A stretch of 64,000 nucleotides of DNA from an uncultured bacterium (GTDB lineage Bacteria > Hydrothermota > UBA3072), in the NCBI GenBank assembly GCA_964418485.1, contig CAYQMH010000001.1, forward strand, positions 29,237 to 93,236. Direction: 5' to 3'. Position numbers and translations under genes: made by a program. Position 1 is the first letter of the stretch, and each line of letters begins with the position of its first letter. This document shows positions 4,189 to 25,338 of the stretch, in pieces. Under the pieces are notes generated by a model, which saw nothing but the letters and a program-made list of their open reading frames with translations, was not told where the DNA came from and made no database searches.

Positions 4189-6000
4189 TCAGGCTTTCTC
4201 CAGTTTATCATACCAGTTAAATTTCAGGAATATCGAAGTTATCGCAAGAACACCAATACCTATATACATTCCCGTAAATTGTCTTATAACAAGATAGATA
4301 GGTATTAAGACAAAAGTCATCTGCCAGATGGTACCTACGATTACGTTTACCATATCACGTGAAAAATCTTTATTTCTCTGGAAATCTGGGTTTTCTTTTT
4401 TAACCTTTTCATAGATGGGTTTCCACAATCCCCATGGACGCACCTTCTTGTAAAAATCTATCAAAAGCTCGTCTTTCTCCGGAGCTGTTAGCAATGTACC
4501 TAAAATAGAGGCAGCAGTACTTATCAACAGTACTACCGGGAAAAGAGCAAGATTTGCTTGAATTCCGAATAAAACATCAGGGTTTCCGATAGCAAGAGGT
4601 AATATTATAGCCGCCGCCATACCGGAAATCATGCCATAGAAAAATCCATATCCGTTAAACCTCCACCAGTACCACTTAAGAACATTGGGCGCAACATATC
4701 CTCCCCAGAGCCCTGAAACAATCCACATCGTTATTTGATGTATCGATTTTCCCAACATTCCGAAAACGAGACCTAAAATAATAAGCAAAAAAGTGCTAAT
4801 ATAACTTATAGTAACATATCTCTTTTCTGAAGCTTCTTTATTTATATATCTTTTATAAATATCATTAACAATATAAGAAGCGCCGCAATTAAGTGTTCCG
4901 TCGTAAGTACTCATAAAAGCGGAAATAAGTCCCGCCAGAATTAGACCTACGAGGCCCACAGGCACGAAATTATGCACAACATAGGGAAAAATTTGTTCGA
5001 AGTCTACACCTGCGCCCATCGCGCTAAGCTGGGGGCTGAAGAAAACCAGTCCCAAAACACAGATACCCGTTACAAGAAGATATCGGGGGAAAAATAATAC
5101 AACAGTAACAAAAAAACTCATAAGGGAAGCTTCTCTTGGATTCTTGGTCGCGAGTATTTTCTGCATGTCATAATTCGGAGCCGGTCCCGCTCCGCTCACC
5201 AATACACCTTTAAAAAGCATCATCATAAGGACAATACCTGCTAGTGAAAAACCATCACTGGCTATTCTGTCATTTATAGCAGGCATCAAATTTACCCAGT
5301 CCATACTAAGACTGCTCCATCCAAACCGAAGGCTGTCCCAGCCCGCCGGTATCGCTGCCTGTATAGCATCGAAAGAAGTATGTGTAAACGCGATATAACC
5401 AATAAATACGGACACAACTGTAAGTATGGAAAACTGAAAAGCGTCGGTAACCAAAACCGCGAACAAACCACCCATAATAGTGTAAATACTCGCGATACTC
5501 ATTATAATTATTCCGTATGTATTAGCGGAAAGGTCCCATGGGAGAAATATCTGAGAAAATTTACCTATTCCCTGGAAAGCGTATGCGAGAAACCCTGTCG
5601 TACTTATAATAGCAAAAACAACAACACTGATATCCGAAAGCTGCGCTCCGCGGTCATGCCCAAACCTGGTTTTTATCCACTCGGCACCGGTTATAGCATT
5701 AGAACGTCTAAGCCACTTAGCAAGATATACCATCAGAAAAACCTGGTTGAACACGGGCCACACCCAGGGTAAGAAAGCTCCTTTTATTCCGTAAATAAAA
5801 AGCCATGTAACCAACATCATGGTACCTGTTACATCGAACATACCGGAAGCATTCGCCAGACCTAAAATATAAAAAGGAACTTTGTTTCCGCCCAAGAAGT
5901 AAGCTCTGATATCTTTAGCTGCCCATTTTTTTACGACTATACCTATAGCGACTACGATTACAAAATAGGCTATTATAATGCCTATATCGATTTTGTTCAT
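4189..6000 (-). CDS. Sodium:solute symporter (SSS/SLC5 family) sugar transporter
   Basis: The 603-aa polytopic membrane protein has an N-terminal IIIAYFVIVVAIG...YFLGG pattern typical of the SSS family. It is co-operonic with the phosphorylases. Confidence 0.75.
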   Translation of the reverse strand: MNKIDIGIIIAYFVIVVAIGIVVKKWAAKDIRAYFLGGNKVPFYILGLANASGMFDVTGTMMLVTWLFIYGIKGAFLPWVWPVFNQVFLMVYLAKWLRRSNAITGAEWIKTRFGHDRGAQLSDISVVVFAIISTTGFLAYAFQGIGKFSQIFLPWDLSANTYGIIIMSIASIYTIMGGLFAVLVTDAFQFSILTVVSVFIGYIAFTHTSFDAIQAAIPAGWDSLRFGWSSLSMDWVNLMPAINDRIASDGFSLAGIVLMMMLFKGVLVSGAGPAPNYDMQKILATKNPREASLMSFFVTVVLFFPRYLLVTGICVLGLVFFSPQLSAMGAGVDFEQIFPYVVHNFVPVGLVGLILAGLISAFMSTYDGTLNCGASYIVNDIYKRYINKEASEKRYVTISYISTFLLIILGLVFGMLGKSIHQITMWIVSGLWGGYVAPNVLKWYWWRFNGYGFFYGMISGMAAAIILPLAIGNPDVLFGIQANLALFPVVLLISTAASILGTLLTAPEKDELLIDFYKKVRPWGLWKPIYEKVKKENPDFQRNKDFSRDMVNVIVGTIWQMTFVLIPIYLVIRQFTGMYIGIGVLAITSIFLKFNWYDKLEKA

Positions 6001-6046
6001 AATACCTCCCTTCCGAAAATAATATTTTCTCGTTCAATCAAGAAGA

Positions 6047-8482
6047 TTATCCTAGAATAACTTCAACTTCGTGAGATTTTCCGTCAGTGAATATCGGAAC
6101 TTTATTTCCTTCTATTATTTTACCATCTACTTTTAAATTTTTTATTCCTTTGCTTTTCTTATTTGGATTACCGACTTTTATATCATAAACCGCACCCCTG
6201 AATTTTCTCCTGATTTTAAACCCATCCCAATCAGATGGAATACAGGGATCGATAATAAGGCCGTCGTAATCCGGTCTTATTCCGAGAATATACTGCGTAA
6301 TTGCCACGTAATTCCAAGCTGCCGTCCCTGTAAGCCAGGAGTTTTTGGCTTCGCCGCTTACGCAAGCATCTTTACCCGACACCATCTGAGAATAGACGTA
6401 AGGTTCGGTCCTGTGAATTTCGCCTATATCTTCAAGATACGCAGGGGCTATCCTTTTGTAATAATCAAAGGCATTATCGCCTCTGCCTATAACGGTCTCC
6501 GCAATCATAATCCAGGGATTATTATGACAAAAAACCCCTGCATTCTCCTTATATCCCGGAGGATAACTGGATATTTCCCCCAGATTAAGACAATATTTCG
6601 AATAAGCGGGATTCTGGAGAACTATACCGTACTTACATAAAAGTCTTTCTTTTACCGAATCGAGCGCCTTTTTCGCCTTACCGTCACGGAGTCCGATACC
6701 TGCCATAATACAGAACCCTTGAGATTCTATAAATATCTGCCCTTCTTCATTTTCGCTGCTTCCGACTTTCTCTCCATTATTATCATAAGCTCGGAGGAAC
6801 CATTCTCCGTCCCACCCATGTTCATTTATAACCTCTATCATATTCTTCACATGTCTGTTTGCTTCTTTTGCCTCTTCTTCCTCTCCTATCTTTTTGCATA
6901 TTTCTTCGAATTCTCTTCCGTAACAGACAAACATACCTGCAATCAGAACGGATTCGGCGACTCTCCCCTCCTTATTCTCCGTTGTCTGAAAAGATTCATC
7001 GGGATCTTCGGAAAAACAGTTTAGATTAAGACAGTCATTCCAGTCGGCTCTACCTATCAAAGGCAAATTATGAGGTCCAAGATTATTGATAACATGATAA
7101 AACGACCTTTTCAAATGTTCGAAAAGGCTTTCAGCTTTACCTTCGTCGTTATCAAAAGGAACCGATTCATCTAGTATGGAATAATCTCCGGTTTCCTTAA
7201 GGTACGCAGAAACCGATGCTATTAACCAGATAGGATCGTCATTAAAGTTACCACCTATCTCATCATTTCCTCTTTTTGTAAGAGGCTGGTACTGATGATA
7301 CGCGCTTCCGTCTTCCATCTGGGTAGCAGCAAGGTCAAGAATTCTTTGTTTTGATTGCTCGGGTATTTGATGTGTACACCCTAACTGATCCTGATTCGAA
7401 TCACGGAAACCTACTCCTCTTCCTATACCCGATTCAAAATATGACGCGCTTCTTGTCATATGGTAAGTAATTATACACTGATAGGGATTCCAAATGTTTA
7501 CCATCCTGGATAATTTCTCGTCCGAATGCTCGAGTTGGTAAACGGAAAGAAGATTATCCCAGTATTCACTTATAGAAGCCAATTCTCTATCCACATCTTC
7601 AGAATTTTTTATTTTGACTATCATTTCTTCCGCTTTTGTCTTATTTATAATTCCTGGACCTTCCCATTTATTTTTTACGTCGTTCTCTACATAGCCAAGA
7701 ATAAATACATAATCTTTTACTTCTCCTGCTTTCAGCTCGACTTCTATACAATGCGAACCTATAGGCTGCCATCCATGAGCTTCCGAATTCCTAGATTTTC
7801 CTTGAAAGACTACAGAAGGAGAAGAAAAATCATTGTAAAGCCCAAGAAAATCCTCCATCCGAGTGTCGTAGCCTTCTATTTCCGCATTCACAGAGTAAAA
7901 AGCAAAATGGTTTCTTCTTTCTCTGTATTCTGTTTTATGGTATATAACAGAATTTTTAATCTCTATCTCTCCTGTGGAAAAATTTCTCTGAAAATTTGTC
8001 ATATCATCGAGAGCATTCCATAGGCAGAATTCGACAAATGAAAAAAGTTTGAATTTTTTCGTAGAATTGGATTTATTTGCGAGGCGAACCCTCTCTACTT
8101 CACCGCTGTACCCAAGAGGAACAAAATAGAGAACTTCTGCTCCAATATTATTTCTTACTCCAGTAATTTTTGTATAACCGAGACCATGCCGGCATTCATA
8201 TTTATCCAATTCCGCCTTTACAGGCTTCCAGCCAGGTGACCATACGTCACCGTTATCGTTGATGTAGAAGTATTTTCCGCCGTCATCAACCGGAATATTG
8301 TTGTAACGATATCGGGTTATCCTCCTCAGCCTGGCATCTTTATAGAAACTGTAACCACCGGCAGTATTGGAGATCAGAGAAAAAAAACCGTCATAACCAA
8401 GATAATTGATCCATGGGTAGGGAACTCTGGGCGAGGTAATTACGTACTCTCTCTCTTTGTCATCAAAATATCCGAATTTCAA
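6047..8482 (-). CDS. GH94 cellobiose/cellodextrin phosphorylase
   Basis: The 811-aa ORF starts [29 protein letters not shown]...[26 protein letters not shown], a classic GH94 N-terminus, and its length matches cellobiose phosphorylase. Confidence 0.85.
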
Positions 8483-8559
8483 TTAAAACCCCTCTCTATA
8501 TTTACGCATAAAATGTAAAAAGCCTTCATTAAAGTATTATTCGAATGAGTTAAGCAGTC

Positions 8560-8777: not shown

Positions 8778-9227
8778 TTACTTGACTTTTACTTCGATCT
8801 CTTTAGGTTTTTCTTTCTCCGATTTTGGCAGAGTGATGATCAGGACACCGTCTTTAAATTCGGCATTCACTTTCTTTTCGTCTAAGGCGGATGAAAAACT
8901 AAAGGCTCTCCGGAAATTCCCGTAGGACCGCTCAACTCTGAGATAAGATTCGCCTTCTTCTTTAGTCTCTTCCTTCTTTTCGCCTTCTATTAGAAGGCTG
9001 TTTTCCTTTATCTTTATTTTCAGGTCCTTTTTATCTATTCCCGGGACTTCCAAAGTAATCGTATACTTATCTCCATCCTCCTTAACATCCGCTACCGGAA
9101 ATACTTCCCTGCTTGACAGCGAACTGCCAAAACCCCGCAAAAAGTCTCTCATTACATTGTCGAAGTCCTCCCTGATGTCAAAAAACCTGTCCAAAGGATC
9201 GTAATTAACCAAATCTTTCTTAATCAT
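8778..9227 (-). CDS. Hsp20/alpha-crystallin small heat-shock protein
   Basis: The 149-aa ORF has an alpha-crystallin domain (...ITLEVPGIDKKDLKIKIKENSLLIEGEKK...GVLIITLPK). Confidence 0.9.
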   Translation of the reverse strand: MIKKDLVNYDPLDRFFDIREDFDNVMRDFLRGFGSSLSSREVFPVADVKEDGDKYTITLEVPGIDKKDLKIKIKENSLLIEGEKKEETKEEGESYLRVERSYGNFRRAFSFSSALDEKKVNAEFKDGVLIITLPKSEKEKPKEIEVKVK

Positions 9228-9500: not shown

Positions 9501-9902
9501 ATGATAGGTGATTTGACCGGCGAGGTCCTGCAGGCGCTTTTGGAAACGGTGCCCTTCGAATTCTCTGTGTTAGATGAGAACGATAAAGTTCTTGCCTGGA
9601 ACAAACATAAAACGAGAATATTTAAAAGATCTGTTGGCGTCATTGGCAGGGATGTTCGCGATTGTCATCCAAAGAAAAGCCTGGACAAAGTAGAAAAACT
9701 ACTTCTTGAGATGAAGGAAGAAAAGAGAGAAAAGGCAAGATTTTGGATTGATCTTCCTTTAGGGGAAAAGGGCAAGCAAAAGATTCTCATCGAGTATTAT
9801 GCTCTTAGAGGTAAATCGGGTAAGTATATAGGCTGCCTCGAGGTTACTCAAAACATAACCGATATTCAGTCACTGGAAGGAGAAAAGCGTCTTCTCGATT
9901 GA
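9501..9902 (+). CDS. Small PAS-fold domain protein (DUF438-like), function unknown
   Basis: The 133-aa ORF is divergent from hsp20. Its beta/alpha pattern and the RDVRDCHP motif are compatible with a PAS-like sensor domain. The product call is weak. Confidence 0.4.
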   Translation: MIGDLTGEVLQALLETVPFEFSVLDENDKVLAWNKHKTRIFKRSVGVIGRDVRDCHPKKSLDKVEKLLLEMKEEKREKARFWIDLPLGEKGKQKILIEYYALRGKSGKYIGCLEVTQNITDIQSLEGEKRLLD

Positions 9903-10050: not shown

Positions 10051-10078
10051 TTGACAAAAATAAAATAAGGAATATATT
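10051..10078 (+). promoter_or_regulatory. Candidate sigma70 promoter TTGACA-16-TATATT for the tusA-dsrE-iscS operon
   Basis: ccccTTGACAaaaataaaataaggaaTATATTa lies about 65 nt upstream of the tusA ATG. Confidence 0.4.
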
Positions 10079-10142
10079 ATTAGTAGCTCTACTAATTCGA
10101 TAGAATTAGTAGAATAAGAAAAATTTAAAATTGGGGGTAAAA

Positions 10143-10364
10143 ATGTCTGAAATAAAAGTTGATTGTATAAATGAAACGTGTCCCGTTCCTCTTGTGGAAA
10201 CGAGGAAAGCTTTACGTAAAGTTTCTAAGGGTGATGTGGTTGAGGTTAGGGGAACGCATCAATCTTCCAAAAAGGAGATACCTATGGCAGTAAAATCGAT
10301 GGGATTGGAGCTTTTGGGGGTTGAGGAGAAAGATGGGGTGTGGTCGATAAGGATTCGTAAATAG
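10143..10364 (+). CDS. tusA: TusA-like sulfurtransferase (sulfur carrier)
   Basis: The 74-aa protein has a CPVP (CPxP) motif near the N-terminus. The start at 10143 is preceded by a GGGGG RBS. Confidence 0.8.
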   Translation: MSEIKVDCINETCPVPLVETRKALRKVSKGDVVEVRGTHQSSKKEIPMAVKSMGLELLGVEEKDGVWSIRIRK

Positions 10365-10372
10365 GAGGAGAT

Positions 10373-10792
10373 ATGAATAAAAAAGCGACTTTGATTGTTC
10401 ATAGCGGAGATTTAGATAAGGTTTATAGCGCTTTTATTATTGGTCTGGGTGCTCTTTCTATGGGTATGGATGTTTCCATGTATTTTACTTTCTGGGGTCT
10501 CGAACGCCTTAAAAAGGGAAATCTGGATAAAGCTCCGCTTTCAAGAATGAATATGTTTGGACTCGGCAGATGGATGATAAGGCGAAAGATGAGGCGGGCA
10601 GGCGTGGCTTCTCTTGATGAAATGCTCAAAGACTTTGTTGAGCTCGGAGGAAAAATACTTGCCTGTGATATGACAATGGAGATAATGGGCGTAAACAAGG
10701 AAAATTTAAGGGATGATGTAATAAGTAATTATTGCGGTGTGGGAACTTATATAAAAGAAGCAATGGAGTCCGATGTAACTTTGTTTATTTAG
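10373..10792 (+). CDS. DsrE/DsrF-like sulfur-relay family protein
   Basis: The 139-aa ORF lies immediately downstream of tusA. It has the size and hydrophobic core pattern of the DsrE/DsrF-like family, and the TusA-DsrE pairing is common. Confidence 0.55.
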   Translation: MNKKATLIVHSGDLDKVYSAFIIGLGALSMGMDVSMYFTFWGLERLKKGNLDKAPLSRMNMFGLGRWMIRRKMRRAGVASLDEMLKDFVELGGKILACDMTMEIMGVNKENLRDDVISNYCGVGTYIKEAMESDVTLFI

Positions 10793-10806
10793 AGAGGTGA
10801 TTAAAT

Positions 10807-11982
10807 ATGGATAAAAAGACGATATATTTCGACAATGCCGCATCCAGCAGGATGGATGAAAGAGTACTGGAAGCAATGAAGCCATATTTTTTTGATGTTT
10901 ATGCTGTCGCAACTTCCGAATTCGGATATTCTCTTGGAATTGAGGCAAGGGAAGCTTTAGATTCCGCGAGATTAAAAATACTTTCAGCTCTGGGGAATCC
11001 CGAAGGAAAGTTGATTTTTACTTCAGGGAGTACGGAATCGAGTAATATTGCTATTAAAGGAGTAGTCAGGAAGCTGTCAGGTAAAAAAGGAAAACACATA
11101 ATTGTATCTAAAATCGAGGATTTTCCCGTTTTGAATAGCGCAAAGTCTCTCGAAAGGGAAGGATTTAAAGTTACTTATCTAGCTGTAGACAAGTATGGCC
11201 TTGTTGATCCAGAAGAGCTTAAAGATTTGATAACAGAGGATACTATATTGGTCTCGATTCAGCACGCGAATCAGGAAATAGGAACGATTCAGGATATAAA
11301 AACAATTGGTGAAATATGCAGCAAAAATAATGTAATTTTTCATTCTGACGCTACACATTCTTTTATGAGAGTTCCTCTCGATTTGAACAAGTTAGGTGTG
11401 GATTTGCTGACGATATCCGCTCATACAATACATGGCCCCAAGGGTATTGGCGCTCTTTACGTAAGAGAAGGAGTTCCAGTAGCGAAATGGATCGACGGTG
11501 GATTTCAGGAGTTTGATTTGAGGGCCGGCGTTGAGAACATTCCCGGAGCAGTTGGTTTCGCTAAAGCAGTCGAGCTGGTAGTAGAAGAAGAAAACGAAAC
11601 ACTTAAAAATTTGCGGGACTATCTTATAGAAAAAGTCCAAAAAGAGATACCCGATACTATCTTAAATGGTCATCCTGAGAAAAGAATTCCCCATAATGCC
11701 AATATAACTTTTCACTATGTCGAAGGAGAATCCATTACACTTCATCTCGATATGAAGGGTTTTGCCGTTAGTACAGGTTCTGCATGTTTCAGTAAGTCTC
11801 TCGAGGCAAGCTATGTTATATTGGGTATAGGAGGCGACCATGAGAGAGCCCACGGCTCTGTTCGCTTTAGTTTCGGAAGATATAATAAAAAAGAAGATGT
11901 AGATGATATAGTAGAGGCTCTTAAGAATATAGTAAAACAGTTGAGAGTAATTAGCCCTCTTAAAGGAGAGAAAGTGAGGTAA
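10807..11982 (+). CDS. IscS/NifS-like class V aminotransferase (cysteine desulfurase homologue) lacking the PLP-binding lysine (HTIHGPKG instead of HKIYGPKG)
   Basis: The 391-aa ORF has an IscS fold throughout. The active-site Cys loop is present (STGSACFS). The Schiff-base Lys position is encoded by the codon aca (Thr) at 11425-11427. Confidence 0.85.
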   Translation: MDKKTIYFDNAASSRMDERVLEAMKPYFFDVYAVATSEFGYSLGIEAREALDSARLKILSALGNPEGKLIFTSGSTESSNIAIKGVVRKLSGKKGKHIIVSKIEDFPVLNSAKSLEREGFKVTYLAVDKYGLVDPEELKDLITEDTILVSIQHANQEIGTIQDIKTIGEICSKNNVIFHSDATHSFMRVPLDLNKLGVDLLTISAHTIHGPKGIGALYVREGVPVAKWIDGGFQEFDLRAGVENIPGAVGFAKAVELVVEEENETLKNLRDYLIEKVQKEIPDTILNGHPEKRIPHNANITFHYVEGESITLHLDMKGFAVSTGSACFSKSLEASYVILGIGGDHERAHGSVRFSFGRYNKKEDVDDIVEALKNIVKQLRVISPLKGEKVR

Positions 11983-11984
11983 AG

Positions 11985-12620
11985 ATGAAATTCCCATACA
12001 GTGAAAAAGTTCTTGAGCATTTTAGAAACCCAAGAAATGTTGGGAACATTGAGAACGCGGACGGAAAATCCACCGAAGGCAGTCCCGCGTGCGGGGATAT
12101 GGTTTCCGTTTATATCAAAGTGGATGAAGAAACAAAAAAGATAGAAGATATAAAATTTGAATCGTACGGTTGTGCTTCAAATATAGCTACCGGATCTATA
12201 ATAACGGAATTGGCAAAAGGTAAAACTCTCGAAGAAGCTAAAAAAATAGACTGGAAAGAGGCTTCGGATGCTCTTGGGGGACTGCCAAAAATAAAAACTC
12301 ATTGCTCCGTGCTCGCAGTAGATGGTCTGCGGGCTGCGATTACCAATTACGAGGAAAAACACGGTCTTGTTAAAGAAAAAGTCCCAACGACGAAAGAGAT
12401 CGTGCTGAAGAGACTAAGACACGTTATGAATCCCCTGGCAGGGCTCGACCTCGTAAGAACTAATTTGATAGATAGCGTTAAGGTGGAAAATGGAACTATA
12501 GAGGTATCGGTAAGTCTTCCCGAGGATCATCAATTTGCGAATAACATCAGGGAAGAAATATTAGAAAAACTTGAAAATCTTTGGGATGTTGATAAAGTTG
12601 TTGTTATATTTACTGTTTAG
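11985..12620 (+). CDS. IscU/NifU-type Fe-S scaffold fused to a C-terminal DUF59 (MIP18/SufT-like) domain
   Basis: The N-terminal ~125 aa carry IscU motifs (PACGD...YGCASN...HCS). The C-terminal ~80 aa are DUF59-like (RHVMNPLAGLDLVRTNLI). Confidence 0.8.
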   Translation: MKFPYSEKVLEHFRNPRNVGNIENADGKSTEGSPACGDMVSVYIKVDEETKKIEDIKFESYGCASNIATGSIITELAKGKTLEEAKKIDWKEASDALGGLPKIKTHCSVLAVDGLRAAITNYEEKHGLVKEKVPTTKEIVLKRLRHVMNPLAGLDLVRTNLIDSVKVENGTIEVSVSLPEDHQFANNIREEILEKLENLWDVDKVVVIFTV

Positions 12621-12641
12621 AAAAACAAAAAAGGAGTAAAA

Positions 12642-12890
12642 ATGTTGAAAGAGAAAAAAGAAAGTAAAATGAAAGAAAAAGTTGAAGAAGCTATAAAAGA
12701 TATTAAGCCATCTTTACGGGCTGACGGAGGAGATGTTGAACTCCTCGAAGTCACAGAGGAAGGAATAGTGAAGGTCAGGCTGATGGGAGCTTGCTCGGGA
12801 TGTATGATGTCTCAAGTAACTTTGAAGTCCGGGATAGAAAATTACCTGAAGCAGCAAGTTCCTGAAGTTAAAGAAGTGGTTGCTGTTTGA
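12642..12890 (+). CDS. Nfu/NifU C-terminal-domain Fe-S carrier protein
   Basis: The 82-aa ORF carries GACSGC (CxxC) in a NifU_C-like context. Confidence 0.7.
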   Translation: MLKEKKESKMKEKVEEAIKDIKPSLRADGGDVELLEVTEEGIVKVRLMGACSGCMMSQVTLKSGIENYLKQQVPEVKEVVAV

Positions 12891-12949
12891 TAGTAGCGGG
12901 TAATGGTTAGGATTAAAAGAGTAAATAAGAAAACGGAGGTTTTTAGGTG

Positions 12950-13360
12950 ATGAAATTTTCAACGAAAACGAGATATGGGATGAGGGCGATGATCGAACTT
13001 GCTAATTGTTATAAAGATAAACCGATTCTTTTAAAGGAAATTGCCGAACGGTTAGAAGTTTCCATGAAATATCTTGACCATATTGTTTCTTCTTTGAAAG
13101 CAAGAGGTTTAATAGTCAGAGTGAAAGAGGGTTATATCCTTGGCAGAGCTCCCGAAGAGATAAATTGTGGTGAGATAGTGGATGTGCTCGAGGGTTCTTT
13201 AAATCCCGTAGTTTGTATAGATTCACCGTCGTTTTGTGAGAAGTACAGGGAATGTAAAGCAAAAAAGGTGTGGGGAAAAGTCGGGGCTTCTATAAAGGAA
13301 ACATTAGAATCCTTTACACTAGATAATTTAATAAATTATAAGGCGGCAAAGCCGCTGTAA
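12950..13360 (+). CDS. Rrf2-family transcriptional regulator (IscR-like)
   Basis: It begins KFSTKTRYGMRAMIELA with an HTH region, as in Rrf2/IscR proteins. C-terminal Cys residues are available for a cluster. Confidence 0.8.
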   Translation: MKFSTKTRYGMRAMIELANCYKDKPILLKEIAERLEVSMKYLDHIVSSLKARGLIVRVKEGYILGRAPEEINCGEIVDVLEGSLNPVVCIDSPSFCEKYRECKAKKVWGKVGASIKETLESFTLDNLINYKAAKPL

Positions 13361-13363
13361 GGA

Positions 13364-13654
13364 GTGAAAATGGATGTAAAGCATGTCGAAGGAGAAAAAA
13401 AGGGTAAAATAATGCTCTATGCGATATCCACCTGTGTCTGGTGTAAGAAAACGAAAAAACTACTTAATAGCCTCAATGTAGATTATTACTATGTAGATGT
13501 CGACCTTCTGGAAGAAACTGAAAGGGAAGAGGTTGAGAAAGAAGTTATGAAGTGGAATCCTTCATGTTCTTTTCCTACTCTTGTTATAAATGATAGAGAA
13601 TCGGTAAGTGGTTATGACGAGGAAGAAATAAGGAGTAAAATTAAAAATGAATGA
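13364..13654 (+). CDS. Glutaredoxin-like / thioredoxin-fold protein (CVWC active site)
   Basis: The 96-aa ORF has a CxxC motif (STCVWCKK) in a Trx fold. Confidence 0.6.
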
Positions 13655-14165
13655 AAGTGATATTCCATCAGAGCAAATAGACAATCTATATAAAAAACTC
13701 GATTCTGAAGCAGAAAGTTCAGGATACCACCTTAATCCAGATGAGGAATTCACAAAAGAACTGGTGGAGGGTTTGCTTATAAACGAAAAGAGATACGGAT
13801 ACTGGGCATGCCCGTGCAGACTTGCATCTATGGTAAAGGAAAAAGATCTCGATATAATATGCCCCTGCGATTACAGGGATCCGGATTTAAATGATTATGA
13901 TACATGTTATTGCGGGCTTTACGTCTCTCAGGCGGTTGTAGACGGAGAAAGAGAGGTAAAGAAAATACCGGAGAGAAGGCTTCCGAAAGAGGAAAGAGAA
14001 AAAATGAAGAAGGAATCCGGAAATAAATCAGTTGGAATATCGAAGCTGTCGAAACCAGTATGGCGTTGTAAAGTGTGCGGATATCTTTGCGGACGGGACG
14101 AGCCTCCGGGAGTATGTCCTATATGTAAAGCTAAAAAAGAACGTTTCGAGAAATTTTTGGAATGA
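13647..14165 (+). CDS. Ferredoxin:thioredoxin reductase catalytic-subunit-like protein fused to a C-terminal rubredoxin-like domain
   Basis: SSGYHLNPD...CPCR...CPC...CYC matches the FtrC signature. The C-terminal CKVCGY...CPICK is rubredoxin-like. Confidence 0.7.
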
Positions 14166-14251
14166 AAAAGCAGATTGGACGCAGATGAACGCAGATAAAA
14201 AAGTAAAAAAGCAAATGAATTTTTTATAGAGGTTTGAGAAGGAAGGGAAAA

Positions 14252-15961
14252 ATGAAAATCTTAAAAGGCATAAGCGCAAACACCGGTTTAGCTAAAGGTG
14301 TTGCTGCTGTTTACAGTGAGGAAGTAGAAGAAAATATTCCTCATTATATGATCGAAGAAGAAACAATAGACAGGGAAATTACCCGTCTAAAAGAAGCTTA
14401 CGGTAAGACTAAAGAGGCAATAGAACAGATGTTGAAAGTTTCCGAGGAAATATTCGGTAAAACGGGTGAAGATATATTCGCAGCGCATAGTACTATTTTG
14501 GAAGATGAAGCATTGTTCGAGGAAATTGTTTCTCTTATAAAGAAGAGACTTATTAACGCGGAGCATGCTGTCAATGATGTTTTTGATGCTTACCGGGAGA
14601 AATTCAAACAAAAGAATTTCCAACTTTCGGAATTGACCCATGATATTATGGATGTTAGAAATAGGATTCTTTCATCTTTCGATGGTCTTACAGGGCGTTT
14701 CGAATGTAGTTTAAATGAGAGGCAACCTGTGATTGTTGTTTCCAGATCTTTAAGTCCTTCAATGGTCCTAAATATAGCCCGGAGTGATATGCTTGCTTTT
14801 GTGAGCGAAGAAGGAGGTTTTACATCACACGCGACTATACTGGCTCAGAATTTTGGCGTACCTATTGTGTTTGGAGTAGATGCCTTAGAAAATATCGAGT
14901 GCGGTGACAAAGTTATTGTAGATGCTTCGCTTGGGAAAGTCATAGTAAACCCGGATAAGGAAACAGAAAAATATTATGATAAAAAGATAAAAGAAGCAGA
15001 GAAACGTAAGCGGTTTTGTATTGTTAAAGAAGGAGAACCTACCCGGACAAAAAGGGGTCTGCGGCTTAATTTAAAAGCCAACATTAGCCTTCAAGCGGAA
15101 ATAAAATTGCTTGAGGGGCTGAATTATGATGGAGTTGGACTCCTTAGGTCGGAATTTCTCTTTGCAAACCGACATAGAGCGCCGTCCGAAGAAGATTGGT
15201 TCAGGGTTTATAAAAATATTGCTGAAACTGCAAAAGATAAGAGTGTTAATATAAGGTTGTTGGATATTAGTACAGATAAGATGCCGACATATTTACATCT
15301 GCCTCCTGGAGAAAATTTTGATCTTGGAATACGCGGAGCAAGAGCTATAGATGTTTTCTATTATGCCTATTTAGATCAGATAAAAGCAATACTTCGAGCA
15401 TCGGTTTACGGAAATTTAAGATTCCTGTATCCTATGATATCCGATATATCCGATATAGAATCATTCAGAGAGATAAGAAAAAAAGCAGAAGCTATTTTGC
15501 AGGAAGAGAAAAAGAAATATGGTAAATATATAAAGGAAGGAATAATGATAGAGACTCCTGCAGCGGCAGTTATGTCGGGGACTCTTATGGAATACGTCGA
15601 TTTCGCAAATATTGGTTCTAATGATCTGCTCCAATATACACTTGCTGCATCGAGGGGAAATCAAATAATTGAAAAAAAATATCATATTCTTCATCCTTCT
15701 CTTGTTCGTCTTATGGAGATCATTGTTAAAGAAACCCGAAAATACAAAAAAGAGATATGCCTATGCGGAGAAATTGCCAGTTTTGAAGAATTCTATCCTC
15801 TGTTTTTAAGCATCGGCATTAACAGTTTCAGCGTGGAAGCGTCGAAGCTTAGCGATATAAAATGTAACTTATTACACCTTGAGAAACCCGATAAATCATA
15901 CCTGGAGAAATTTTACGAAAATCTTGAGAAAGATGATATCGAGAAGTTTCTCAGAGGTTAA
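14252..15961 (+). CDS. ptsI: Phosphoenolpyruvate-protein phosphotransferase (PTS enzyme I)
   Basis: The 570-aa ORF has the EI N-terminus MKILKGISANTGLAKG, phosphohistidine region GGFTSHATILAQNFGVPIV, and C-terminal IGSNDLLQYTLAASRGN. RBS aggaaggg precedes the ATG at 14252. Confidence 0.85.
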   Translation: MKILKGISANTGLAKGVAAVYSEEVEENIPHYMIEEETIDREITRLKEAYGKTKEAIEQMLKVSEEIFGKTGEDIFAAHSTILEDEALFEEIVSLIKKRLINAEHAVNDVFDAYREKFKQKNFQLSELTHDIMDVRNRILSSFDGLTGRFECSLNERQPVIVVSRSLSPSMVLNIARSDMLAFVSEEGGFTSHATILAQNFGVPIVFGVDALENIECGDKVIVDASLGKVIVNPDKETEKYYDKKIKEAEKRKRFCIVKEGEPTRTKRGLRLNLKANISLQAEIKLLEGLNYDGVGLLRSEFLFANRHRAPSEEDWFRVYKNIAETAKDKSVNIRLLDISTDKMPTYLHLPPGENFDLGIRGARAIDVFYYAYLDQIKAILRASVYGNLRFLYPMISDISDIESFREIRKKAEAILQEEKKKYGKYIKEGIMIETPAAAVMSGTLMEYVDFANIGSNDLLQYTLAASRGNQIIEKKYHILHPSLVRLMEIIVKETRKYKKEICLCGEIASFEEFYPLFLSIGINSFSVEASKLSDIKCNLLHLEKPDKSYLEKFYENLEKDDIEKFLRG

Positions 15962-16078: not shown

Positions 16079-18055
16079 TTAGTTTATCAAGATTATCTTT
16101 ATCTTTTCGTCGATTTCCTGTCCTTGCATTACAACAAAGTAGATATCGCTCGCGAGTTTCAAATTCTTCAGCGACAAAGGATGGTACCCGCGTTCCACGA
16201 TTCCGTTAAGAAGTGTTCCCGCTTCCCTTCCTAATTTGTCGTATACCTTTACCGTTATTTCGCCTTTTTTTGCCACCTCGCAAAGAATCTCTCCGCTTCC
16301 GAAGCTCGCGCTTATACCGGAAACAGAAGGGGCTTCCGCGATGCCTCCTTCTGCTACGACTTCGATGTCAACCGTAGCGCTAAGTGTATCGACGAGATTT
16401 TCGGATACCCACATTACCTCTACCGTAACGGTTTCCTCGGTACTTCCCGCGGTAAACTCTGTGTACACTTCACCTTCACTGTCTGTTACACCGCTTGTGG
16501 GATTTACCGAACCATCTCCGATTATAACATCAAAGCTAAGCTCTTCGCCCGCGAGACCAGCCCCTTCTTTTTCAAGATATGCTCTCAATTCTAAAGTCTC
16601 ACCGAAGCTGATTGTGTCACTATCGGAAAATAAGGAAAGTCCGTCGGCGCTTATCCAGTTGCTTCTGTCGAACCATGCCATCTGTTCGGGCCAGTTGACG
16701 TATAGTATGCCGTATATTCCGTCCGCTATCCTTTCGATGCAGGGCTTTACGTTCGCGCGCGGGACGTTATCGGCAAAAGAATCCGGCGTAGTCCATGAGC
16801 TTAAATTATAACTTCTATGCCTGTAAATACCTTCGGCGAATGTACCTGTCGTTTGATATACTGCTCCGAATCCGTCTCCTCCTCTTGCCGTGACGTCATT
16901 TACTAAGCTCTGAATATCGGACCCAGACAATATAGTTCCCACGGCCCAATTGGTTCCACTGTTACTGGTAATATAATATCTTACATCATAGGTGGGTGAA
17001 TTATAGAAGGGATAAACGATCATGACGGTATCCCCGTAGGCACCTATGGATGTCACATAGTCGGCGTTAGTGCCGAGAACCGAACTAGTCGGATAAACGG
17101 TCCAACTTGACCAACCGCCAATAAAATAAAGCTCGTTGTCTGTTCCGATATACGAAGCCCACATTTTGTTTGGATATGCGCAGCAGGCGTCGAGTCCTCT
17201 ATCCGCGTCTGCCACAGGAGGATTGAAAGCAGTCCAGGATACTGCCAATGTGTCGTCATTATTATAATATAGTCTCAGAGAATCGTTTTGCATAATGGCG
17301 AAGTAAAACAGATATTGGGGAGTAGGATGGGCGTCATTGCTGGTCAGCGATATCTCTCTTAAGCCGGATGTTTCGTTGATTATCGTTTGATAGCTATATA
17401 CCCCATCGCTGCTGCCGTCGCTTGTGAAAAATCTTCTTATGCGGCCGACATTATTAGGTGTGTTATATGTATAAGCCAGGTAAAAGCGGTTTTTTAAAAC
17501 GGCACCGTCTATATCTATCAAATAATTGGGATTCGTAGTCCAAACATATGTCTCTGCCCAGGTTTTTCCCGTGTCGAGTGATATGTTCACAGTGAATTTA
17601 TAATTTGACGGTCCATTCCTGTGAAGAAGAGCGGCAAGCAGATGTCCGTTGGAATTGTCCACGTCGAAATCAATATCCACGATCGAGTCTACAGTACCGA
17701 CTCGAGCATCCCCCGCCCACCTTAAGGATATTTTTACCGGGTTTTTCCATTGTATGCCTATAGCTGCGTTGTCTAATTCGGGTGAAGTTTTCAGCAACTC
17801 TATCGCTTCCTCGTGGTTTCCACTGTTCCATGTTTCTTCTATGCGGTTGGCTTGTAACAGGTTTTCTCCGTCGCATTCGATATCAATAATGGCGTTTGAT
17901 TTTTCGTAAGTGGTTAAATTTTCGAGTGTTAGTGAGAGGGGCGAACTTTCAGTTGGAATTATAGCCGGAATGTCATAATTTCCTTGGTTATCAGTTGATG
18001 CCAATACTGCAAAGGAGAACAGCAAACATGCAAAAAAAACCGGTAACTTTTTCAT
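16079..18055 (-). CDS. Secreted BNR/Asp-box repeat protein with Ig-like (Big) domain and T9SS-type C-terminal sorting domain
   Basis: It has a signal peptide MKKLPVFFACLLFSFAVLAS and Asp-box motifs (SLDTGKTW, NSGTNWAV). A Big-like segment precedes a C-terminal ~80-aa Por-secretion-tail-like end (...SDIYFVVMQGQEIDEKIKIILIN). Confidence 0.6.
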   Translation of the reverse strand: MKKLPVFFACLLFSFAVLASTDNQGNYDIPAIIPTESSPLSLTLENLTTYEKSNAIIDIECDGENLLQANRIEETWNSGNHEEAIELLKTSPELDNAAIGIQWKNPVKISLRWAGDARVGTVDSIVDIDFDVDNSNGHLLAALLHRNGPSNYKFTVNISLDTGKTWAETYVWTTNPNYLIDIDGAVLKNRFYLAYTYNTPNNVGRIRRFFTSDGSSDGVYSYQTIINETSGLREISLTSNDAHPTPQYLFYFAIMQNDSLRLYYNNDDTLAVSWTAFNPPVADADRGLDACCAYPNKMWASYIGTDNELYFIGGWSSWTVYPTSSVLGTNADYVTSIGAYGDTVMIVYPFYNSPTYDVRYYITSNSGTNWAVGTILSGSDIQSLVNDVTARGGDGFGAVYQTTGTFAEGIYRHRSYNLSSWTTPDSFADNVPRANVKPCIERIADGIYGILYVNWPEQMAWFDRSNWISADGLSLFSDSDTISFGETLELRAYLEKEGAGLAGEELSFDVIIGDGSVNPTSGVTDSEGEVYTEFTAGSTEETVTVEVMWVSENLVDTLSATVDIEVVAEGGIAEAPSVSGISASFGSGEILCEVAKKGEITVKVYDKLGREAGTLLNGIVERGYHPLSLKNLKLASDIYFVVMQGQEIDEKIKIILIN

Positions 18056-22292: not shown

Positions 22293-23180
22293 TTATATTT
22301 CCACCCCCAAAGTCACTCTTATAATTATCCCTATTACAAAAGAAAGGGCGGCAACTCCGAGGCTTAAAAATGTCATCTCAAGAAAACGTTTTCTGAAAGG
22401 TAAATCCTTTGCAATTGAAACGTAGTAGTTGAAGAAGAATATAATGAATACTCCGATACCCAGAGTTGCCGTCAGGGCTAAGATATAATTGTTAAAAATA
22501 AAATATGGCAAAACCAGCAATAAAACAGTAACAATATAAGCTGTTCCAGTATAGAGTGAAGACTTGAGCGCTGTTTCAGTATTTCCTTCCGCTTTTGTAG
22601 AGAGGTATTCTGAAGCACCCATAGAAAGAGAAGCAGCAATTCCTGTTATGATTCCTACCGCCGCTATGAGACTTGTTTTTTGAAGGGCAAAAGAAAGGCC
22701 GGCAAGACTCCCGGTTAATTCAACAAGAGCATCATTTAAACCCAGAACAATTGAACCAACATAGTTGAGCTTTTCTTCGTCGAGTAAATCGATCAATTCT
22801 TTTTCGTGTTTTTCTTCATCTTCTGCGATTTGTTCCGCTTCCGGGATATATTCCGCGATTTCCATGTAATTAACCTGAGCCTGTTCTTCGCCTTTTTCCA
22901 TCAGTTTTACCGCAAAAGTGTACCCTAAGAATTTTGCGATTAAAGTAAATTTAAAAATTTTCCAGCGATTTGGCTTTAGATCTTTCTTCGTAATTGTTTG
23001 CCAGAATTTGGCATGCCTTAATTCTTCGTTTGCAATATCGAGCAAAACTTTTCTGTTCTTTTTGTCTTTTACTAATTTTGCAATATTGGAATATATATAG
23101 TATTCGGTAAGTTCACTCATTTGAGCAGTATAAATTTGTTTCATAATATGTTCAAGAGCTTCTAGTGACTTCCCCATCAA
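22293..23180 (-). CDS. Membrane-bound ferritin-like / VIT1-CCC1 family iron transporter (MbfA-like, erythrin-VIT fusion)
   Basis: An N-terminal ferritin-like four-helix region with E..H pairs (ANEELRHAKFW...EDEEKHEKEL) is followed by a C-terminal 5-TM VIT1 domain. Confidence 0.75.
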   Translation of the reverse strand: MMGKSLEALEHIMKQIYTAQMSELTEYYIYSNIAKLVKDKKNRKVLLDIANEELRHAKFWQTITKKDLKPNRWKIFKFTLIAKFLGYTFAVKLMEKGEEQAQVNYMEIAEYIPEAEQIAEDEEKHEKELIDLLDEEKLNYVGSIVLGLNDALVELTGSLAGLSFALQKTSLIAAVGIITGIAASLSMGASEYLSTKAEGNTETALKSSLYTGTAYIVTVLLLVLPYFIFNNYILALTATLGIGVFIIFFFNYYVSIAKDLPFRKRFLEMTFLSLGVAALSFVIGIIIRVTLGVEI

Positions 23181-23319
23181 ACCTCCTTATAGTAGCAGAA
23201 GATTGTTAAAGTTTAACCCCTGCATCAATAAAAACTTTTCTTCTTTTAAATTTTATGAATTTTTTGCCGTTTTGTCAACCGTTTTTTCTATAGACTGTTT
23301 TTAAATTCTTTGCAATATG

Positions 23320-23973
23320 TTATTTGAATACTTCACCCGTTTCTTTTGCCCAGAAAACGAGGTCCAGGGTATCCATCGGTATATTTAAATTTTTTGATAA
23401 CTTTTTCATTTTTTCTTCTATTTCTATATACTTTTTTTCTGATAAATTTTTTGGGTATTCTCCTAAGACCCCAAGTTCTATTAGATTTCTTATAATATGT
23501 CTATCAAGTATAGCTATATCTGCGCCAAGCCCAATATTTCGGAGGAAATGACTCGCTTCCTTCCATCCTATACCTTTCAGGTTTTTCACCAGATATTCTC
23601 TTAAGGTTATAGGAGATTTAGATTTTTTTATGATACTATATATTGAATCGCCACCCTTGAAAAATTTATTTCTGGCTTCGAGAAGATATTCTGTTTTTTT
23701 ATTTTTAAATCTGACCTTTTGCAGCTCTTTATTTATAGCTTTCTTTGTTCCGTTAAGAAGAATACTCTTTTTTCGCATCGATAGGATCGCCTCCCAGCAC
23801 AATCTTGCTTTCGATTGAGGAGTCAATATGCAGAAGGCTAATTCGGCAAACACCTCTTCGGGACTTGCGTTTTCGCCTATTTGCTTGAATTCGTCGAGCC
23901 GGCGTTCAATTTCTTTCTTGAATTTCGAATATACTTGTTTTATTTCGGGGATATTTTTTTTATTAATTTCCAA
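23320..23973 (-). CDS. ogg: 8-oxoguanine DNA glycosylase / N-glycosylase-DNA lyase (archaeal-type Ogg2, HhH-GPD)
   Basis: The 217-aa ORF has the HhH-GPD motif LKGIGWKEASHFLRNIGLGADIAILDRHI with catalytic Lys and Asp. Confidence 0.75.
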   Translation of the reverse strand: MEINKKNIPEIKQVYSKFKKEIERRLDEFKQIGENASPEEVFAELAFCILTPQSKARLCWEAILSMRKKSILLNGTKKAINKELQKVRFKNKKTEYLLEARNKFFKGGDSIYSIIKKSKSPITLREYLVKNLKGIGWKEASHFLRNIGLGADIAILDRHIIRNLIELGVLGEYPKNLSEKKYIEIEEKMKKLSKNLNIPMDTLDLVFWAKETGEVFK

Positions 23974-24039
23974 TTTTCCAAACTTACCATACTAAAGTGA
24001 TTGCCTATGTCAAGACGGCAACCCACCCCACACCAAATA

Positions 24040-24260
24040 TTAACCACAGAGGACACAGAGAAAAACAAACCCTCAGAGACCACAGAGAAAAACAACAAAT
24101 TATTTTTTTAATTAAAAACCCCAACCCCTCCAAAAAATAGAAACAACGAATTACACGAATAGCACGAATATCGAAAAGAAAAAAACTGATTTATTTGTGC
24201 AATTTGTTGTTAAAAAACGGGTGGTGCGGGTTCTTTATTTTTCCTATTCGACAATTTAAC
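24040..24260. repeat. Copy of dispersed composite intergenic repeat (CACAGAG heptads, C-rich complement of G tract, TTCGTG heptads)
   Basis: ccacagaggacacagagaaaaacaa...aaaccccaacccctcc...acgaattacacgaatagcacgaa is closely similar to 33228-33330. Its reverse complement is similar to 34490-34570. Confidence 0.65.
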
Positions 24261-24343
24261 CATTCAACTAATTTTCTGACGCCCTGATTCTTCTTGCTCC
24301 GCAAACCTGCTTTTCTTTTTCTCAATTAGAGAAAAACTACACC

Positions 24344-24371
24344 TTGACAAAAACAAGAAATCATATATAAT
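24344..24371 (+). promoter_or_regulatory. Sigma70-type promoter TTGACA-16-TATAAT for rubrerythrin-sor
   Basis: accTTGACAaaaacaagaaatcataTATAATga lies about 60 nt upstream of the rbr ATG. Confidence 0.5.
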
Positions 24372-24433
24372 GATTTGGAATAATTTTAAATTTGTAATGA
24401 TTACAAAAATAAAATGAAAGTTCAGGAGGTAAG

Positions 24434-24937: not shown

Positions 24938-24957
24938 CGAAAGGGAGGTATTGAATT

Positions 24958-25338
24958 ATGGGTTTTGCAGAACTTTTAAAAACGGCTGATTGGAAATCTG
25001 AAAAACATGTACCTGCAATAGAAGTATTGGAAAAAGATGAAAAGGTCAAGTTAAGAGTTTCCGTTGGTAAAGAAATTCCTCATCCAAACAAAACCGAACA
25101 TCATATAAGGTGGATCGAAGTTTACTTTAAGCCCGAAGGCAGTAAGTTTCCTTATATGATCGGAAAGGCTGATTTTGAAGCACACGGAGCTTCCACGGAA
25201 GGTCCCGATACAAGTACGGTTTATACTGAACCGGATGTTAATCTAACGTTTAAAACCGGAAAATCTGGCACTATCTATGCTTTCTCTTACTGTAACATCC
25301 ACGGCCTGTGGGTTAACGAAGAGGAGTTGGATATATAG
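24958..25338 (+). CDS. sor: Superoxide reductase (neelaredoxin/desulfoferrodoxin-type 1Fe-SOR)
   Basis: The 126-aa ORF has the SEKHVP motif and His/Cys ligands (HHIRW...YCNIHG). Confidence 0.85.
   Translation: MGFAELLKTADWKSEKHVPAIEVLEKDEKVKLRVSVGKEIPHPNKTEHHIRWIEVYFKPEGSKFPYMIGKADFEAHGASTEGPDTSTVYTEPDVNLTFKTGKSGTIYAFSYCNIHGLWVNEEELDI

Follow-up and report, generated by a model that had tools for sequence, protein, structure and literature searches.

A candidate Fe-S assembly operon with a lysine-less IscS homologue in an uncultured Hydrothermota bacterium, and its counterparts in other anaerobes

Gene content of the locus

The subject of this report is a run of eight closely spaced genes for sulfur trafficking, iron-sulfur (Fe-S) cluster assembly and thiol reduction in an uncultured bacterium of the Hydrothermota. 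The genes occupy positions 10131-14165 of a 64,000-nucleotide stretch of contig CAYQMH010000001.1 (positions 29,237 to 93,236), called the window below, and their most unusual product is an IscS/NifS-fold protein without the lysine for pyridoxal 5'-phosphate (PLP). Families were assigned at the Pfam gathering thresholds, and equivalogs were called at the NCBIfam cutoffs. Every one of the eight open reading frames (ORFs) scores above its Pfam threshold, and NCBIfam agrees at the family level; the equivalog cutoffs for NifS, IscS, IscU, IscR and DsrE2 are all missed. Distances between the genes range from -8 to +56 bp. A first-pass annotation, made from the DNA letters alone, had counted nine genes in this interval; eight are found there, as many as its own list names, and the ninth co-directional gene, for a PtsI-like protein, starts 68 bp downstream, beyond the interval. 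The families in that list were all recovered above the Pfam thresholds, on the plus strand and at the same positions, and the proposed check by hidden Markov model search returned the predicted families, including those of the small DsrE-like and glutaredoxin (Grx)-like ORFs.

The gene order as a whole was found again in 11 related contigs of the WOR-3 type (L001-L009 and L081-L083 in our numbering of loci), some of which are cut by contig ends. The gene for Nfu is missing from three WOR-3-type loci (L003, L006 and L081) and present in most others. The nearest genome is a metagenome-assembled genome (MAG) of candidate division WOR-3, in which the gene order is identical and IscS is 90% identical; no exact match to the window IscS sequence was found in the assembly index. 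Because the whole order recurs in WOR-3-type contigs, and a core of four genes in both domains, the arrangement is not a matter of chance. The "supercluster" of the first-pass annotation is real in the WOR-3 lineage, but the eight-gene unit is confined to it. The conserved units are the four-gene core TusA-DsrE2-IscS-IscU::DUF59 and a separate two-gene pair of the Grx-like protein and ferredoxin:disulfide reductase (FDR), which have been joined several times. The PtsI-like gene is syntenic in the WOR-3-type loci; its distance varies, other genes are inserted before it in relatives (L004, L005, L006 and L009), and it was rejected as a ninth member of the operon.

Table 1. Features of the operon and its flanks (positions in the window)
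Feature	Positions	Strand	Remarks
TusA-family sulfur carrier	10131..10364	+	ATG start at 10143 more likely; Cys17 in CPVP
DsrE2-like (DrsE_2 family) sulfur-transferase homologue	10373..10792	+	Cys98 in ACDMT motif
IscS/NifS-fold protein without PLP lysine (Thr207)	10807..11982	+	Cys327 loop STGSACFS kept
IscU scaffold with C-terminal DUF59 fusion	11985..12620	+	C36, D38, C63, H106, C107; DUF59 cysteine-free
Nfu-type Fe-S carrier	12642..12890	+	CSGC motif; Pfam NifU 99.8 bits
Rrf2-family regulator, IscR/CymR-like	12947..13360	+	Cys90, Cys97, Cys103
Glutaredoxin-like protein, CVWC active site	13364..13654	+	8-nt overlap with next gene
FDR homologue, catalytic domain of ferredoxin:thioredoxin reductase (FTR) fused to rubredoxin	13647..14165	+	CPC...CPC...CYC; CxxC...CxxC
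PtsI-like phosphoenolpyruvate-utilising enzyme	14234..15961	+	TIGR01417 398.9 bits; unit membership doubtful
Stand-alone PAS_10 domain protein	9501..9902	+	Pfam PAS_10 76.9 bits; own promoter
Putative sigma-70-like promoter, TTGACA, 16-18 nt, TATATT/TATTAT	10051..10080	+	11 of 12 consensus positions; function predicted
26-bp perfect palindrome TCTACTAATTC-GATA-GAATTAGTAGA	10088..10113	none	directly 3' of -10 box; candidate Rrf2 operator

The IscS homologue and its remodelled pocket

The window IscS matches Aminotran_5 over residues 6-367 (247.5 bits) and stays below the NCBIfam equivalog cutoffs for NifS (438 against 530.75) and IscS (393.8 against 548). Its best match in the PDB is IscS2 of Archaeoglobus fulgidus (chain 4EB5_A, E = 6e-108), with 47.5% identity; identity to Escherichia coli IscS is 45%. 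The loss of the lysine, already noticed in the first-pass annotation, is plain from the motif, SAHTIHGP against SGHKIYGP of E. coli IscS. In A. fulgidus IscS2 (4EB5), an Asp stands naturally at the lysine site, and 4R5F is the same chain carrying Lys.

The pocket was examined in an alignment of E. coli IscS with 81 homologues from GTDB genomes; E. coli numbering is used here, and the reference sequence is identical to 1P3W at 404 of 404 positions. The lysine position, K206, holds Thr in 80 of the 81 clade members and Ser in the remaining one. Four further replacements, H104D, N155Q, Q183H and Y208H, are present in all 81, and T243 has given way to a hydrophobic residue. G74, D180, H205, C328 and R354 are retained throughout, T76 in 79 and S203 in 67 of the 81. 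In the E. coli IscS structure, the changed residues contact the pyridine ring, O3' and C4' of PLP, and the kept ones contact its phosphate, its ring nitrogen and the substrate carboxylate. In window numbering, the invariant residues of the rebuilt pocket are Asp105, Gln156, His184, Thr207 and His209, and Asp181, His206 and Arg355 are retained. Since both the Schiff-base lysine and the PLP ring contacts are gone, the standard PLP desulfurase cycle is closed to the window IscS. The first-pass description of a "probably inactive" desulfurase is supported to this extent, and also by the precedent of the A. fulgidus protein, but plain inactivity leaves the invariant remodelling of the pocket unexplained. 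To judge from this alignment, the Thr-type state is a conserved functional state rather than decay.

The members of this Thr-type clade are at least 61.7% identical in pairs (median 69.8%), Bacteria and Archaea taken together, and at most 48% identical to E. coli IscS, to A. fulgidus IscS2 and to the lysine-bearing copies in two Dehalococcoidales genomes (L038 and L069). In a neighbour-joining tree, the clade sits on a long stem, and coherent bacterial and archaeal subclades are interleaved inside it. By its SAHTIHGP and STGSACFS motifs, its identity and its place in this monophyletic group, the window IscS fits the Thr type, which is also that of Methanosarcina acetivorans IscS1. A. fulgidus IscS2 carries another set of substitutions, Q183A, H205N, K206D and R354L, and retains H104. 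At the positions of the Asp-type signature (K206D, H205N, Q183A, H104), the window IscS has T, H, H and D instead, and it does not belong to that type. Identity, substitution pattern and tree position together rule out that the Thr-type clade is the A. fulgidus IscS2 lineage, and the loss of the lysine in the Thr-type clade appears from these sequences to have arisen separately from the A. fulgidus loss.

The two Dehalococcoidales genomes have both a canonical and a Thr-type system. A lysine-bearing IscS-IscU pair (SAHKLYGPK) is encoded on the minus strand within 3 kb of the Thr-type module (9218-10832 in L038, 8712-10321 in L069). As the two pairs coexist in these genomes, the systems are not redundant copies of each other.

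A four-gene core in Bacteria and Archaea

A search with the IscS query gave 80 loci, in which homologues of the eight operon proteins were marked. Of these loci, 64 show the unbroken order TusA-DsrE2-IscS(Thr)-IscU::DUF59. The remaining 16 comprise five loci cut by contig ends, three without an adjacent IscU, five with IscS-IscU only and three that are rearranged. The core spans about 15 bacterial and archaeal lineages. Its bacterial hosts include WOR-3, Syntrophales, Dehalococcoidia, Anaerolineae, Nitrospirota, Atribacteria and Thermotogae, and its archaeal hosts Methanosarcinales, Methanobacterium, Methanofastidiosum, Theionarchaea, Bathyarchaeia and Heimdallarchaeota (Asgard). The conservation of gene neighbourhood on which the first-pass annotation had staked its claim was thus borne out, with the full order kept in WOR-3-type contigs and the core in 64 of 80 genomes. 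So was the placement of TusA and DsrE before a lysine-less IscS, which is seen in these 64 Thr-type loci and, independently, in four of four Asp-type loci described below. When the neighbouring genes were clustered, no family other than those of the core proved to be linked with it across phyla; the genes nearby for IorA-like, PAS-kinase, P-type ATPase, MFS and phosphatase-like proteins are each restricted to particular lineages and were rejected as core partners.

The residues expected of sulfur carriers and of a scaffold are kept in the core proteins. The window TusA scores 79.9 bits with Pfam TusA (PF01206, cutoff 28.6) and has the active-site motif C17-P-V-P; among 71 homologues, Cys17 is conserved in 99% and His43 in 100%. 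Its best NCBIfam matches are YedF and TusA, and the TusA, YedF and YeeD equivalog models all stay below cutoff. An ATG at 10143, which follows a GGGGG ribosome-binding site, is the more likely start than the TTG at 10131. The DsrE2-like protein scores 128.9 bits with Pfam DrsE_2, and its Cys98 is invariant in 73 homologues. Its nearest PDB entries are 3PNX and 2QS7 (E = 2e-17 for the latter), and 2QS7 is the homotrimeric DsrE2B (PMC11094781). With 77.1 bits against an NCBIfam cutoff of 210, the protein misses the DsrE2 equivalog and is, on these scores, a family member rather than an equivalog of the DsrE2 of sulfur oxidisers.

IscU::DUF59 combines NifU_N (151.8 bits) and FeS_assembly_P/DUF59 (43.7 bits, cutoff 23.5) in one ORF, with a median of 211 aa for the fusion among 74 homologues. 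In the same set, C36, C63 and C107 reach 97-100% conservation, and D38 and H106 are kept as well. In the PDB, the A. fulgidus IscU chain 4EB5_C matches best (E = 4e-44). The fused DUF59 domain is cysteine-free, and a stand-alone DUF59 protein in an Anaerolineae locus (L010) has a Cys in an FCPLA stretch.

Some neighbours and variants of the core were also noted. A gene for a Thi4-family thiazole synthase adjoins the Thr-type module in five archaeal and Dehalococcoidales loci (L028, L031, L038, L043 at 4803-5771, and L069), and it may be a second client of the sulfur relay. A ferritin-like gene lies directly beside a lysine-less IscS in L010 (7172-7612, Thr-type) and in L084 (3255-3677, Asp-type), and could be an iron source for the scaffold. 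In a Methanolobus MAG (L070, 5542-5960), two ORFs take the place of a single DsrE2 gene, and IscU has only 161 aa; the cause is a frameshift or an assembly error, unless the copy is decaying.

The reductase pair

The window FDR combines FeThRed_B (75.5 bits) and RUBY_RBDX, a rubredoxin-like domain (51.7 bits), in one ORF. It matches PDB entry 4TPU, which we take to be the FDR of M. acetivorans, over residues 8-171 (E = 4.5e-76) with 67% identity. The CPC, CPC and CYC motifs and the rubredoxin cysteines are all invariant in the FDR alignment (A1), and a Tyr in place of the His of plant FTR is said to be the signature of FDR. The Grx-like protein scores 51.9 bits with Pfam Glutaredoxin and has a CVWC active site. 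Its PDB matches are 5CAX (E = 4e-30), presumably methanoredoxin (MRX), and 3NZN (E = 2e-29), both of which share one identical 13-residue stretch with it. A further entry, 7PWE, matches the Grx-like protein in its N-terminal half and the FTR domain of the window FDR in its C-terminal half; 7PWE is therefore a natural Grx::FTR fusion. In a sample of 80 FDR loci from metagenomes, a Grx-like gene stands directly upstream of FDR in 77, and two of the other three are cut by contig ends. The window FDR may reduce a Grx-like or thioredoxin (Trx) partner with electrons from ferredoxin, a possibility on which this gene adjacency and the 7PWE fusion bear.

The first-pass annotation had further proposed that this pair is linked with the scaffold genes, and the FDR sample lends this support, with the linkage seen in four gene orders. 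IscS or IscU is present in nine of the 27 FDR loci that have at least 3.5 kb of upstream sequence. Wherever a full-length IscS lies near Grx-FDR in the sample, it is lysine-less. Five are of the Thr type (L081, L082, L083 with a shorter upstream flank, L132 and L146), and four are of the A. fulgidus-like Asp type with Q183A, H205N and K206D (L084, L090, L100 and L147). All four Asp-type loci have TusA and a 120-aa DsrE-like gene upstream. One of them, L100, contains a compact operon of TusA, DsrE, IscS(Asp), IscU, Grx and FDR at 5467-8495. The TusA, DsrE and IscS subfamilies of these Asp-type clusters differ from those of the window. In two Anaerolineae loci (L010 and L032), the order is DUF59, IscS(Thr), ferritin-like, Grx, FDR. 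The union of lysine-less IscS and Grx-FDR in at least four gene orders and two IscS clades is, among the gene-linkage evidence, the strongest support for a functional link.

Promoter, operator and regulator

Upstream of TusA, both CCCTTGACAAAA and the TATATTAT block are conserved in L001-L005 and L007-L009, and their flanks diverge. The palindrome (Table 1) has zero matches expected by chance in the window. It recurs at the equivalent position in L001-L004, L008, L009 and L081, and each locus that has it encodes the Rrf2 gene as well. The Rrf2 protein itself scores 93.8 bits with Pfam Rrf2 and has the cysteine pattern C90-x6-C97-x5-C103; it falls below the NCBIfam equivalog cutoffs for IscR (84.1 against 207.55) and CymR. 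Its best PDB matches are 4CIC (E = 5e-24), presumably the IscR of Thermincola potens, followed by CymR 2Y75. The natural reading of these sequences is that the cluster-bound Rrf2 protein would autorepress the operon at the palindrome, its candidate operator.

No terminator-like site was found on the plus strand between FDR and PtsI (14165-14234), and no convincing terminator between the operon genes. Terminator-like hits on the plus strand at 11845 and 12083 were discarded; they lie inside coding regions, and the count of such hits is not above shuffled expectation. As no tRNA or Rfam element is found in the window, no RNA feature is involved.

The upstream PAS_10 gene is syntenic in L001, L002, L008 and L081. 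In L009, the PAS_10 gene (997-1407) has the TusA promoter and palindrome duplicated in front of it (958-983), and the PAS_10 protein may belong to the same regulon as the operon. PAS_10 matches were also seen near FDR in L100 and L131.

Comparison with known systems

One counterpart of the core has been seen before. The isc1 cluster of M. acetivorans consists of MA0810 (SirA-like), MA0809 (DrsE superfamily), MA0808 (IscS1) and MA0807 (IscU1) (Deere et al., 2020; PMC7585200). It was drawn in the supplement of that paper, the main text called the flanking genes function unknown, and no role in sulfur relay was proposed (PMC7585200). For IscS1, the missing lysine and other missing PLP residues were noted; the protein was insoluble in E. 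coli and was left uncharacterised (PMC7585200). In gene order and families, isc1 matches the window core. IscS1 has MSAHTIHGPR and STGSACFS as in the window protein, and the 24.2 kDa of IscU1 are consistent with an IscU::DUF59 fusion. Unlike the window, the isc1 cluster lists no Nfu, Rrf2, Grx or FDR.

The second precedent is the IscS-IscU complex of A. fulgidus (4EB5, 4EB7), the best solved match for both window proteins. This IscS is naturally lysine-less and was reported to be inactive as a desulfurase, and its Cys ligates a [2Fe-2S] cluster on IscU (PMC7585200; PMC13066941). It differs from the window protein in lying outside the Thr clade and in its other substitutions, and its IscU is without DUF59. 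Its Asp-type relatives in metagenomes are accompanied by TusA, a DsrE-like gene and Grx-FDR, as the window IscS is.

For the reductase pair, the model is FDR and methanoredoxin of M. acetivorans, where FDR reportedly reduces MRX. The window FDR shares all cysteine motifs with 4TPU, and the CVWC site is common to the Grx-like protein and 5CAX. In contrast to that system, the window genes share an 8-nt overlap and form part of an Fe-S assembly operon, and a bacterium is not expected to contain coenzyme M, the reported reductant of MRX. The names and activities of FDR and MRX are those given in a review (PMC7278568).

The canonical ISC system (iscRSUA-hscBA-fdx) shares with the window an IscR-like Rrf2, an IscS-fold protein and an IscU with the LPxxK-type and the Cys/Asp/His motifs. 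The MIS class, a minimal IscS-IscU pair in anaerobes (PMC13066941), is likewise similar in having the pair and in its anaerobic host. Unlike both, the window is without the catalytic lysine, HscBA, Fdx, IscA and CyaY, and adds TusA, DsrE2, DUF59, Nfu, Grx and FDR. The layout had been called non-canonical from the start, and this stands: the annotated window ORFs of 120 aa or more include no HscBA, Fdx, IscA, SufBCD or three-domain NifU, and the window also contains no SufBC or second desulfurase.

Finally, the Rhd-TusA-DsrE2/DsrEFH relay and the sHdr TusA/DsrE3 cascade (PMC11094781) of sulfur oxidisers also combine TusA with a DsrE-family protein that has an active-site Cys. They differ in context, as rhodanese, Dsr and sHdr are missing around the window genes and the host is a fermentative anaerobe; the probable acceptor in the window is also another one, the IscS-like protein or IscU instead of DsrC or LbpA. 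Even in sulfur oxidisers, the function of DsrE2 was described as unclear (PMC11094781).

A literature search returned no paper that ties TusA/DsrE or FDR/Grx to a lysine-less IscS or assigns a sulfur-relay role to the core, and found the M. acetivorans cluster depicted only in Deere et al. (2020; PMC7585200). What is already known comprises each protein family, the Grx-FDR pair, and the four-gene core, which had been seen and not studied. What is new is the wide distribution of the core and its rigid make-up, the pocket rebuilt in an invariant way, the Asp-type loci with their parallel architecture, and the exclusive association of Grx-FDR with lysine-less IscS, of which the WOR-3 operon is the most complete example.

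Interpretation and alternatives

We lean towards the view that the genes form an operon which Rrf2 autoregulates and which encodes a non-canonical Fe-S assembly line of the ISC/MIS type whose sulfur does not come from cysteine, an interpretation that we hold to be somewhat better supported than not. The window IscS keeps the IscS fold, the flexible-loop Cys327 and the IscU partner. Among solved structures, that of the A. fulgidus IscS-IscU complex is nearest to both proteins, and the window encodes a ferredoxin-based anaerobic metabolism, with a 2-oxoacid:ferredoxin oxidoreductase and an NfnAB-like pair. We infer from gene linkage which way the sulfur flows and what the reductase does. In this scheme, TusA (Cys17) and the DsrE2-like protein (Cys98) would form a persulfide relay, which would pass sulfane sulfur, originating outside the gene cluster, to Cys327 of the IscS-like protein or directly to IscU. 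The IscS-like dimer would hold IscU::DUF59 and lend a cysteine ligand during cluster formation, by analogy with the A. fulgidus complex. Electrons would run from reduced ferredoxin through the rubredoxin centre of FDR and its [4Fe-4S]/disulfide site to the CVWC Grx-like protein. The latter would reduce the scaffold persulfide or heterodisulfide to sulfide and reset the thiols, the job of Fdx in canonical ISC. Nfu would deliver the finished clusters to client proteins, and, as long as the Fe-S supply is adequate, Rrf2 with its cluster would repress the operon through the palindrome that covers the transcription start.

Several points weigh against this assembly line. The cluster contains no enzyme that would load TusA or DsrE2, such as a rhodanese, YeeE or a sulfide:quinone reductase. 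In E. coli, the only well-studied case, sulfur moves from IscS to TusA, in the opposite direction. R220, R237, M239 and R340, which we take to be the partner-contact surface residues of E. coli IscS, are unconserved in the Thr-type clade. Of the 80 loci from the IscS search, 69 have no Grx-FDR within 6 kb, so that the reductase is not obligatory. The invariant pocket, which keeps D180, T76, S203, H205 and R354, suggests a bound ligand or metal, for which an inert scaffold has no place. Detection of IscS1 and IscU1 in M. acetivorans proteomes was inconsistent (Deere et al., 2020; PMC7585200), and the literature search returned no experiment on any member of the Thr-type clade.

A more far-reaching proposal takes up the invariant pocket. 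The former PLP pocket of the Thr-type clade may have been rebuilt into a new functional site that holds iron, another metal or a ligand and feeds the scaffold. The lysine-less IscS would be no degenerate desulfurase but the hub of a distinct, ancient and cysteine-independent Fe-S pathway of anaerobes, with sulfur from TusA-DsrE and ferredoxin electrons through FDR/Grx. We offer this tentatively, as an idea with the balance of probability clearly against it. If it were true, the TusA-DsrE-IscS-IscU-Grx-FDR logic of two lysine-less clades would be a general design and not a curiosity.

Among the other explanations, the first sees an oxidative-stress island here. FDR and the Grx-like protein would be a general ferredoxin-dependent disulfide reductase, co-regulated through Rrf2 with a module for Fe-S repair or assembly and without a specific substrate on the scaffold. 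Hsp20 lies divergently upstream, and rubrerythrin, superoxide reductase, Ogg and a VIT1-rubrerythrin fusion are near in the window; peroxiredoxins, rubrerythrin and desulfoferrodoxin adjoin the Asp-type clusters, and neither IscS nor IscU is close by in two thirds of the FDR loci whose flanks are long enough. It also agrees with this explanation that M. acetivorans FDR reportedly reduces a thioredoxin besides methanoredoxin. However, the IscS beside Grx-FDR belongs exclusively to the rare lysine-less kinds, in four independent gene orders, and two of these orders are compact operons with overlapping or abutting genes (L100 and L146), which points beyond shared regulation. A mere stress island is unlikely in our judgement.

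The Thr-type IscS might also still be an enzyme, which would use non-covalent PLP, pyridoxamine phosphate (PMP) or another cofactor and mobilise the sulfur of cysteine or of some related compound, with TusA and DsrE2 as downstream acceptors; the module would then feed both Fe-S assembly and thiolation. The contacts to phosphate, ring nitrogen and carboxylate (T76, S203, H205, D180 and R354) are indeed kept in 67-81 of the 81 members, the changed pocket positions are fixed rather than drifting, Cys328 is invariant, and the direction from IscS to TusA would be that of E. coli. Against this, the Schiff-base lysine is also the catalytic base, and no replacement lysine is nearby. The stacking His104 and both O3' contacts are gone, and the NCBIfam desulfurase cutoffs are missed. 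The nearest solved lysine-less relative was reported to be inactive as a desulfurase (PMC7585200). We consider a surviving enzyme activity rather improbable.

Least convincing, and in our view very improbable, is a module outside Fe-S assembly, with an IscU-like sulfur carrier that serves thiamine, tRNA or molybdenum cofactor thiolation or the detoxification of sulfide and persulfide: TusA/DsrE-type proteins do serve thiolation and dissimilatory sulfur pathways elsewhere (PMC11094781), Thi4 adjoins the module in five loci, and TusA matches YedF and TusA best, all below cutoff, but the IscU cluster ligands (three Cys, Asp and His) are 97-100% conserved, and DUF59, Nfu, the IscR-like regulator and ferritin-like genes, all with Fe-S or iron functions, accompany the module in different lineages.

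The assembly-line reading that we prefer bears on a wider question, how sulfur is supplied to the very large Fe-S proteomes of strict anaerobes and methanogens. Many of these organisms use sulfide over cysteine or lack an active desulfurase, and the electron donors of the minimal systems were described as unknown (PMC13066941). The locus and its relatives provide a testable parts list, with the TusA/DsrE relay, the lysine-less IscS, IscU::DUF59, and FDR with its Grx partner. The WOR-3 operon has all these parts, together with Nfu and a regulator, behind one putative promoter, and is in this respect a ready-made construct with which to attempt reconstitution or heterologous complementation. For FDR and methanoredoxin, it also hints at a physiological substrate.

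Genomic surroundings

The rest of the window encodes glycoside hydrolases, phosphorylases, 2-oxoacid:ferredoxin oxidoreductase, an NfnAB-like pair, rubrerythrin, superoxide reductase and an H+-pyrophosphatase. Read from these genes, the host is a fermentative, ferredoxin-based anaerobe. The Hsp20 gene upstream of the operon lies at 8778-9227. An oxidative-stress and iron cluster at 22293-25338 comprises a rubrerythrin-VIT1 fusion (22293-23180, minus strand), Ogg, a rubrerythrin (24434-24937) and a desulfoferrodoxin-type superoxide reductase (24958-25338). Three ORFs, at 33468-34265 (265 aa), 40716-42266 (516 aa) and 48304-50256 (650 aa), have no Pfam match at E <= 1e-5. Large secreted proteins are encoded at 16079-18055 (minus strand), 51180-52601 (minus strand) and 53748-55703 (plus strand). 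Two of them carry Por_Secre_tail sorting domains of type IX secretion, one of these together with LVIVD repeats; the one at 16079-18055 (658 aa) has no Pfam match at E <= 1e-5 and ends in a similar-looking tail. At 36052-38295, an NfnAB/SudAB-like pair is encoded, consisting of an FAD/[2Fe-2S] subunit and a Fer4_20/Pyr_redox_2 subunit, and through this pair NAD(P)H could be linked to the ferredoxin pool from which FDR would draw.

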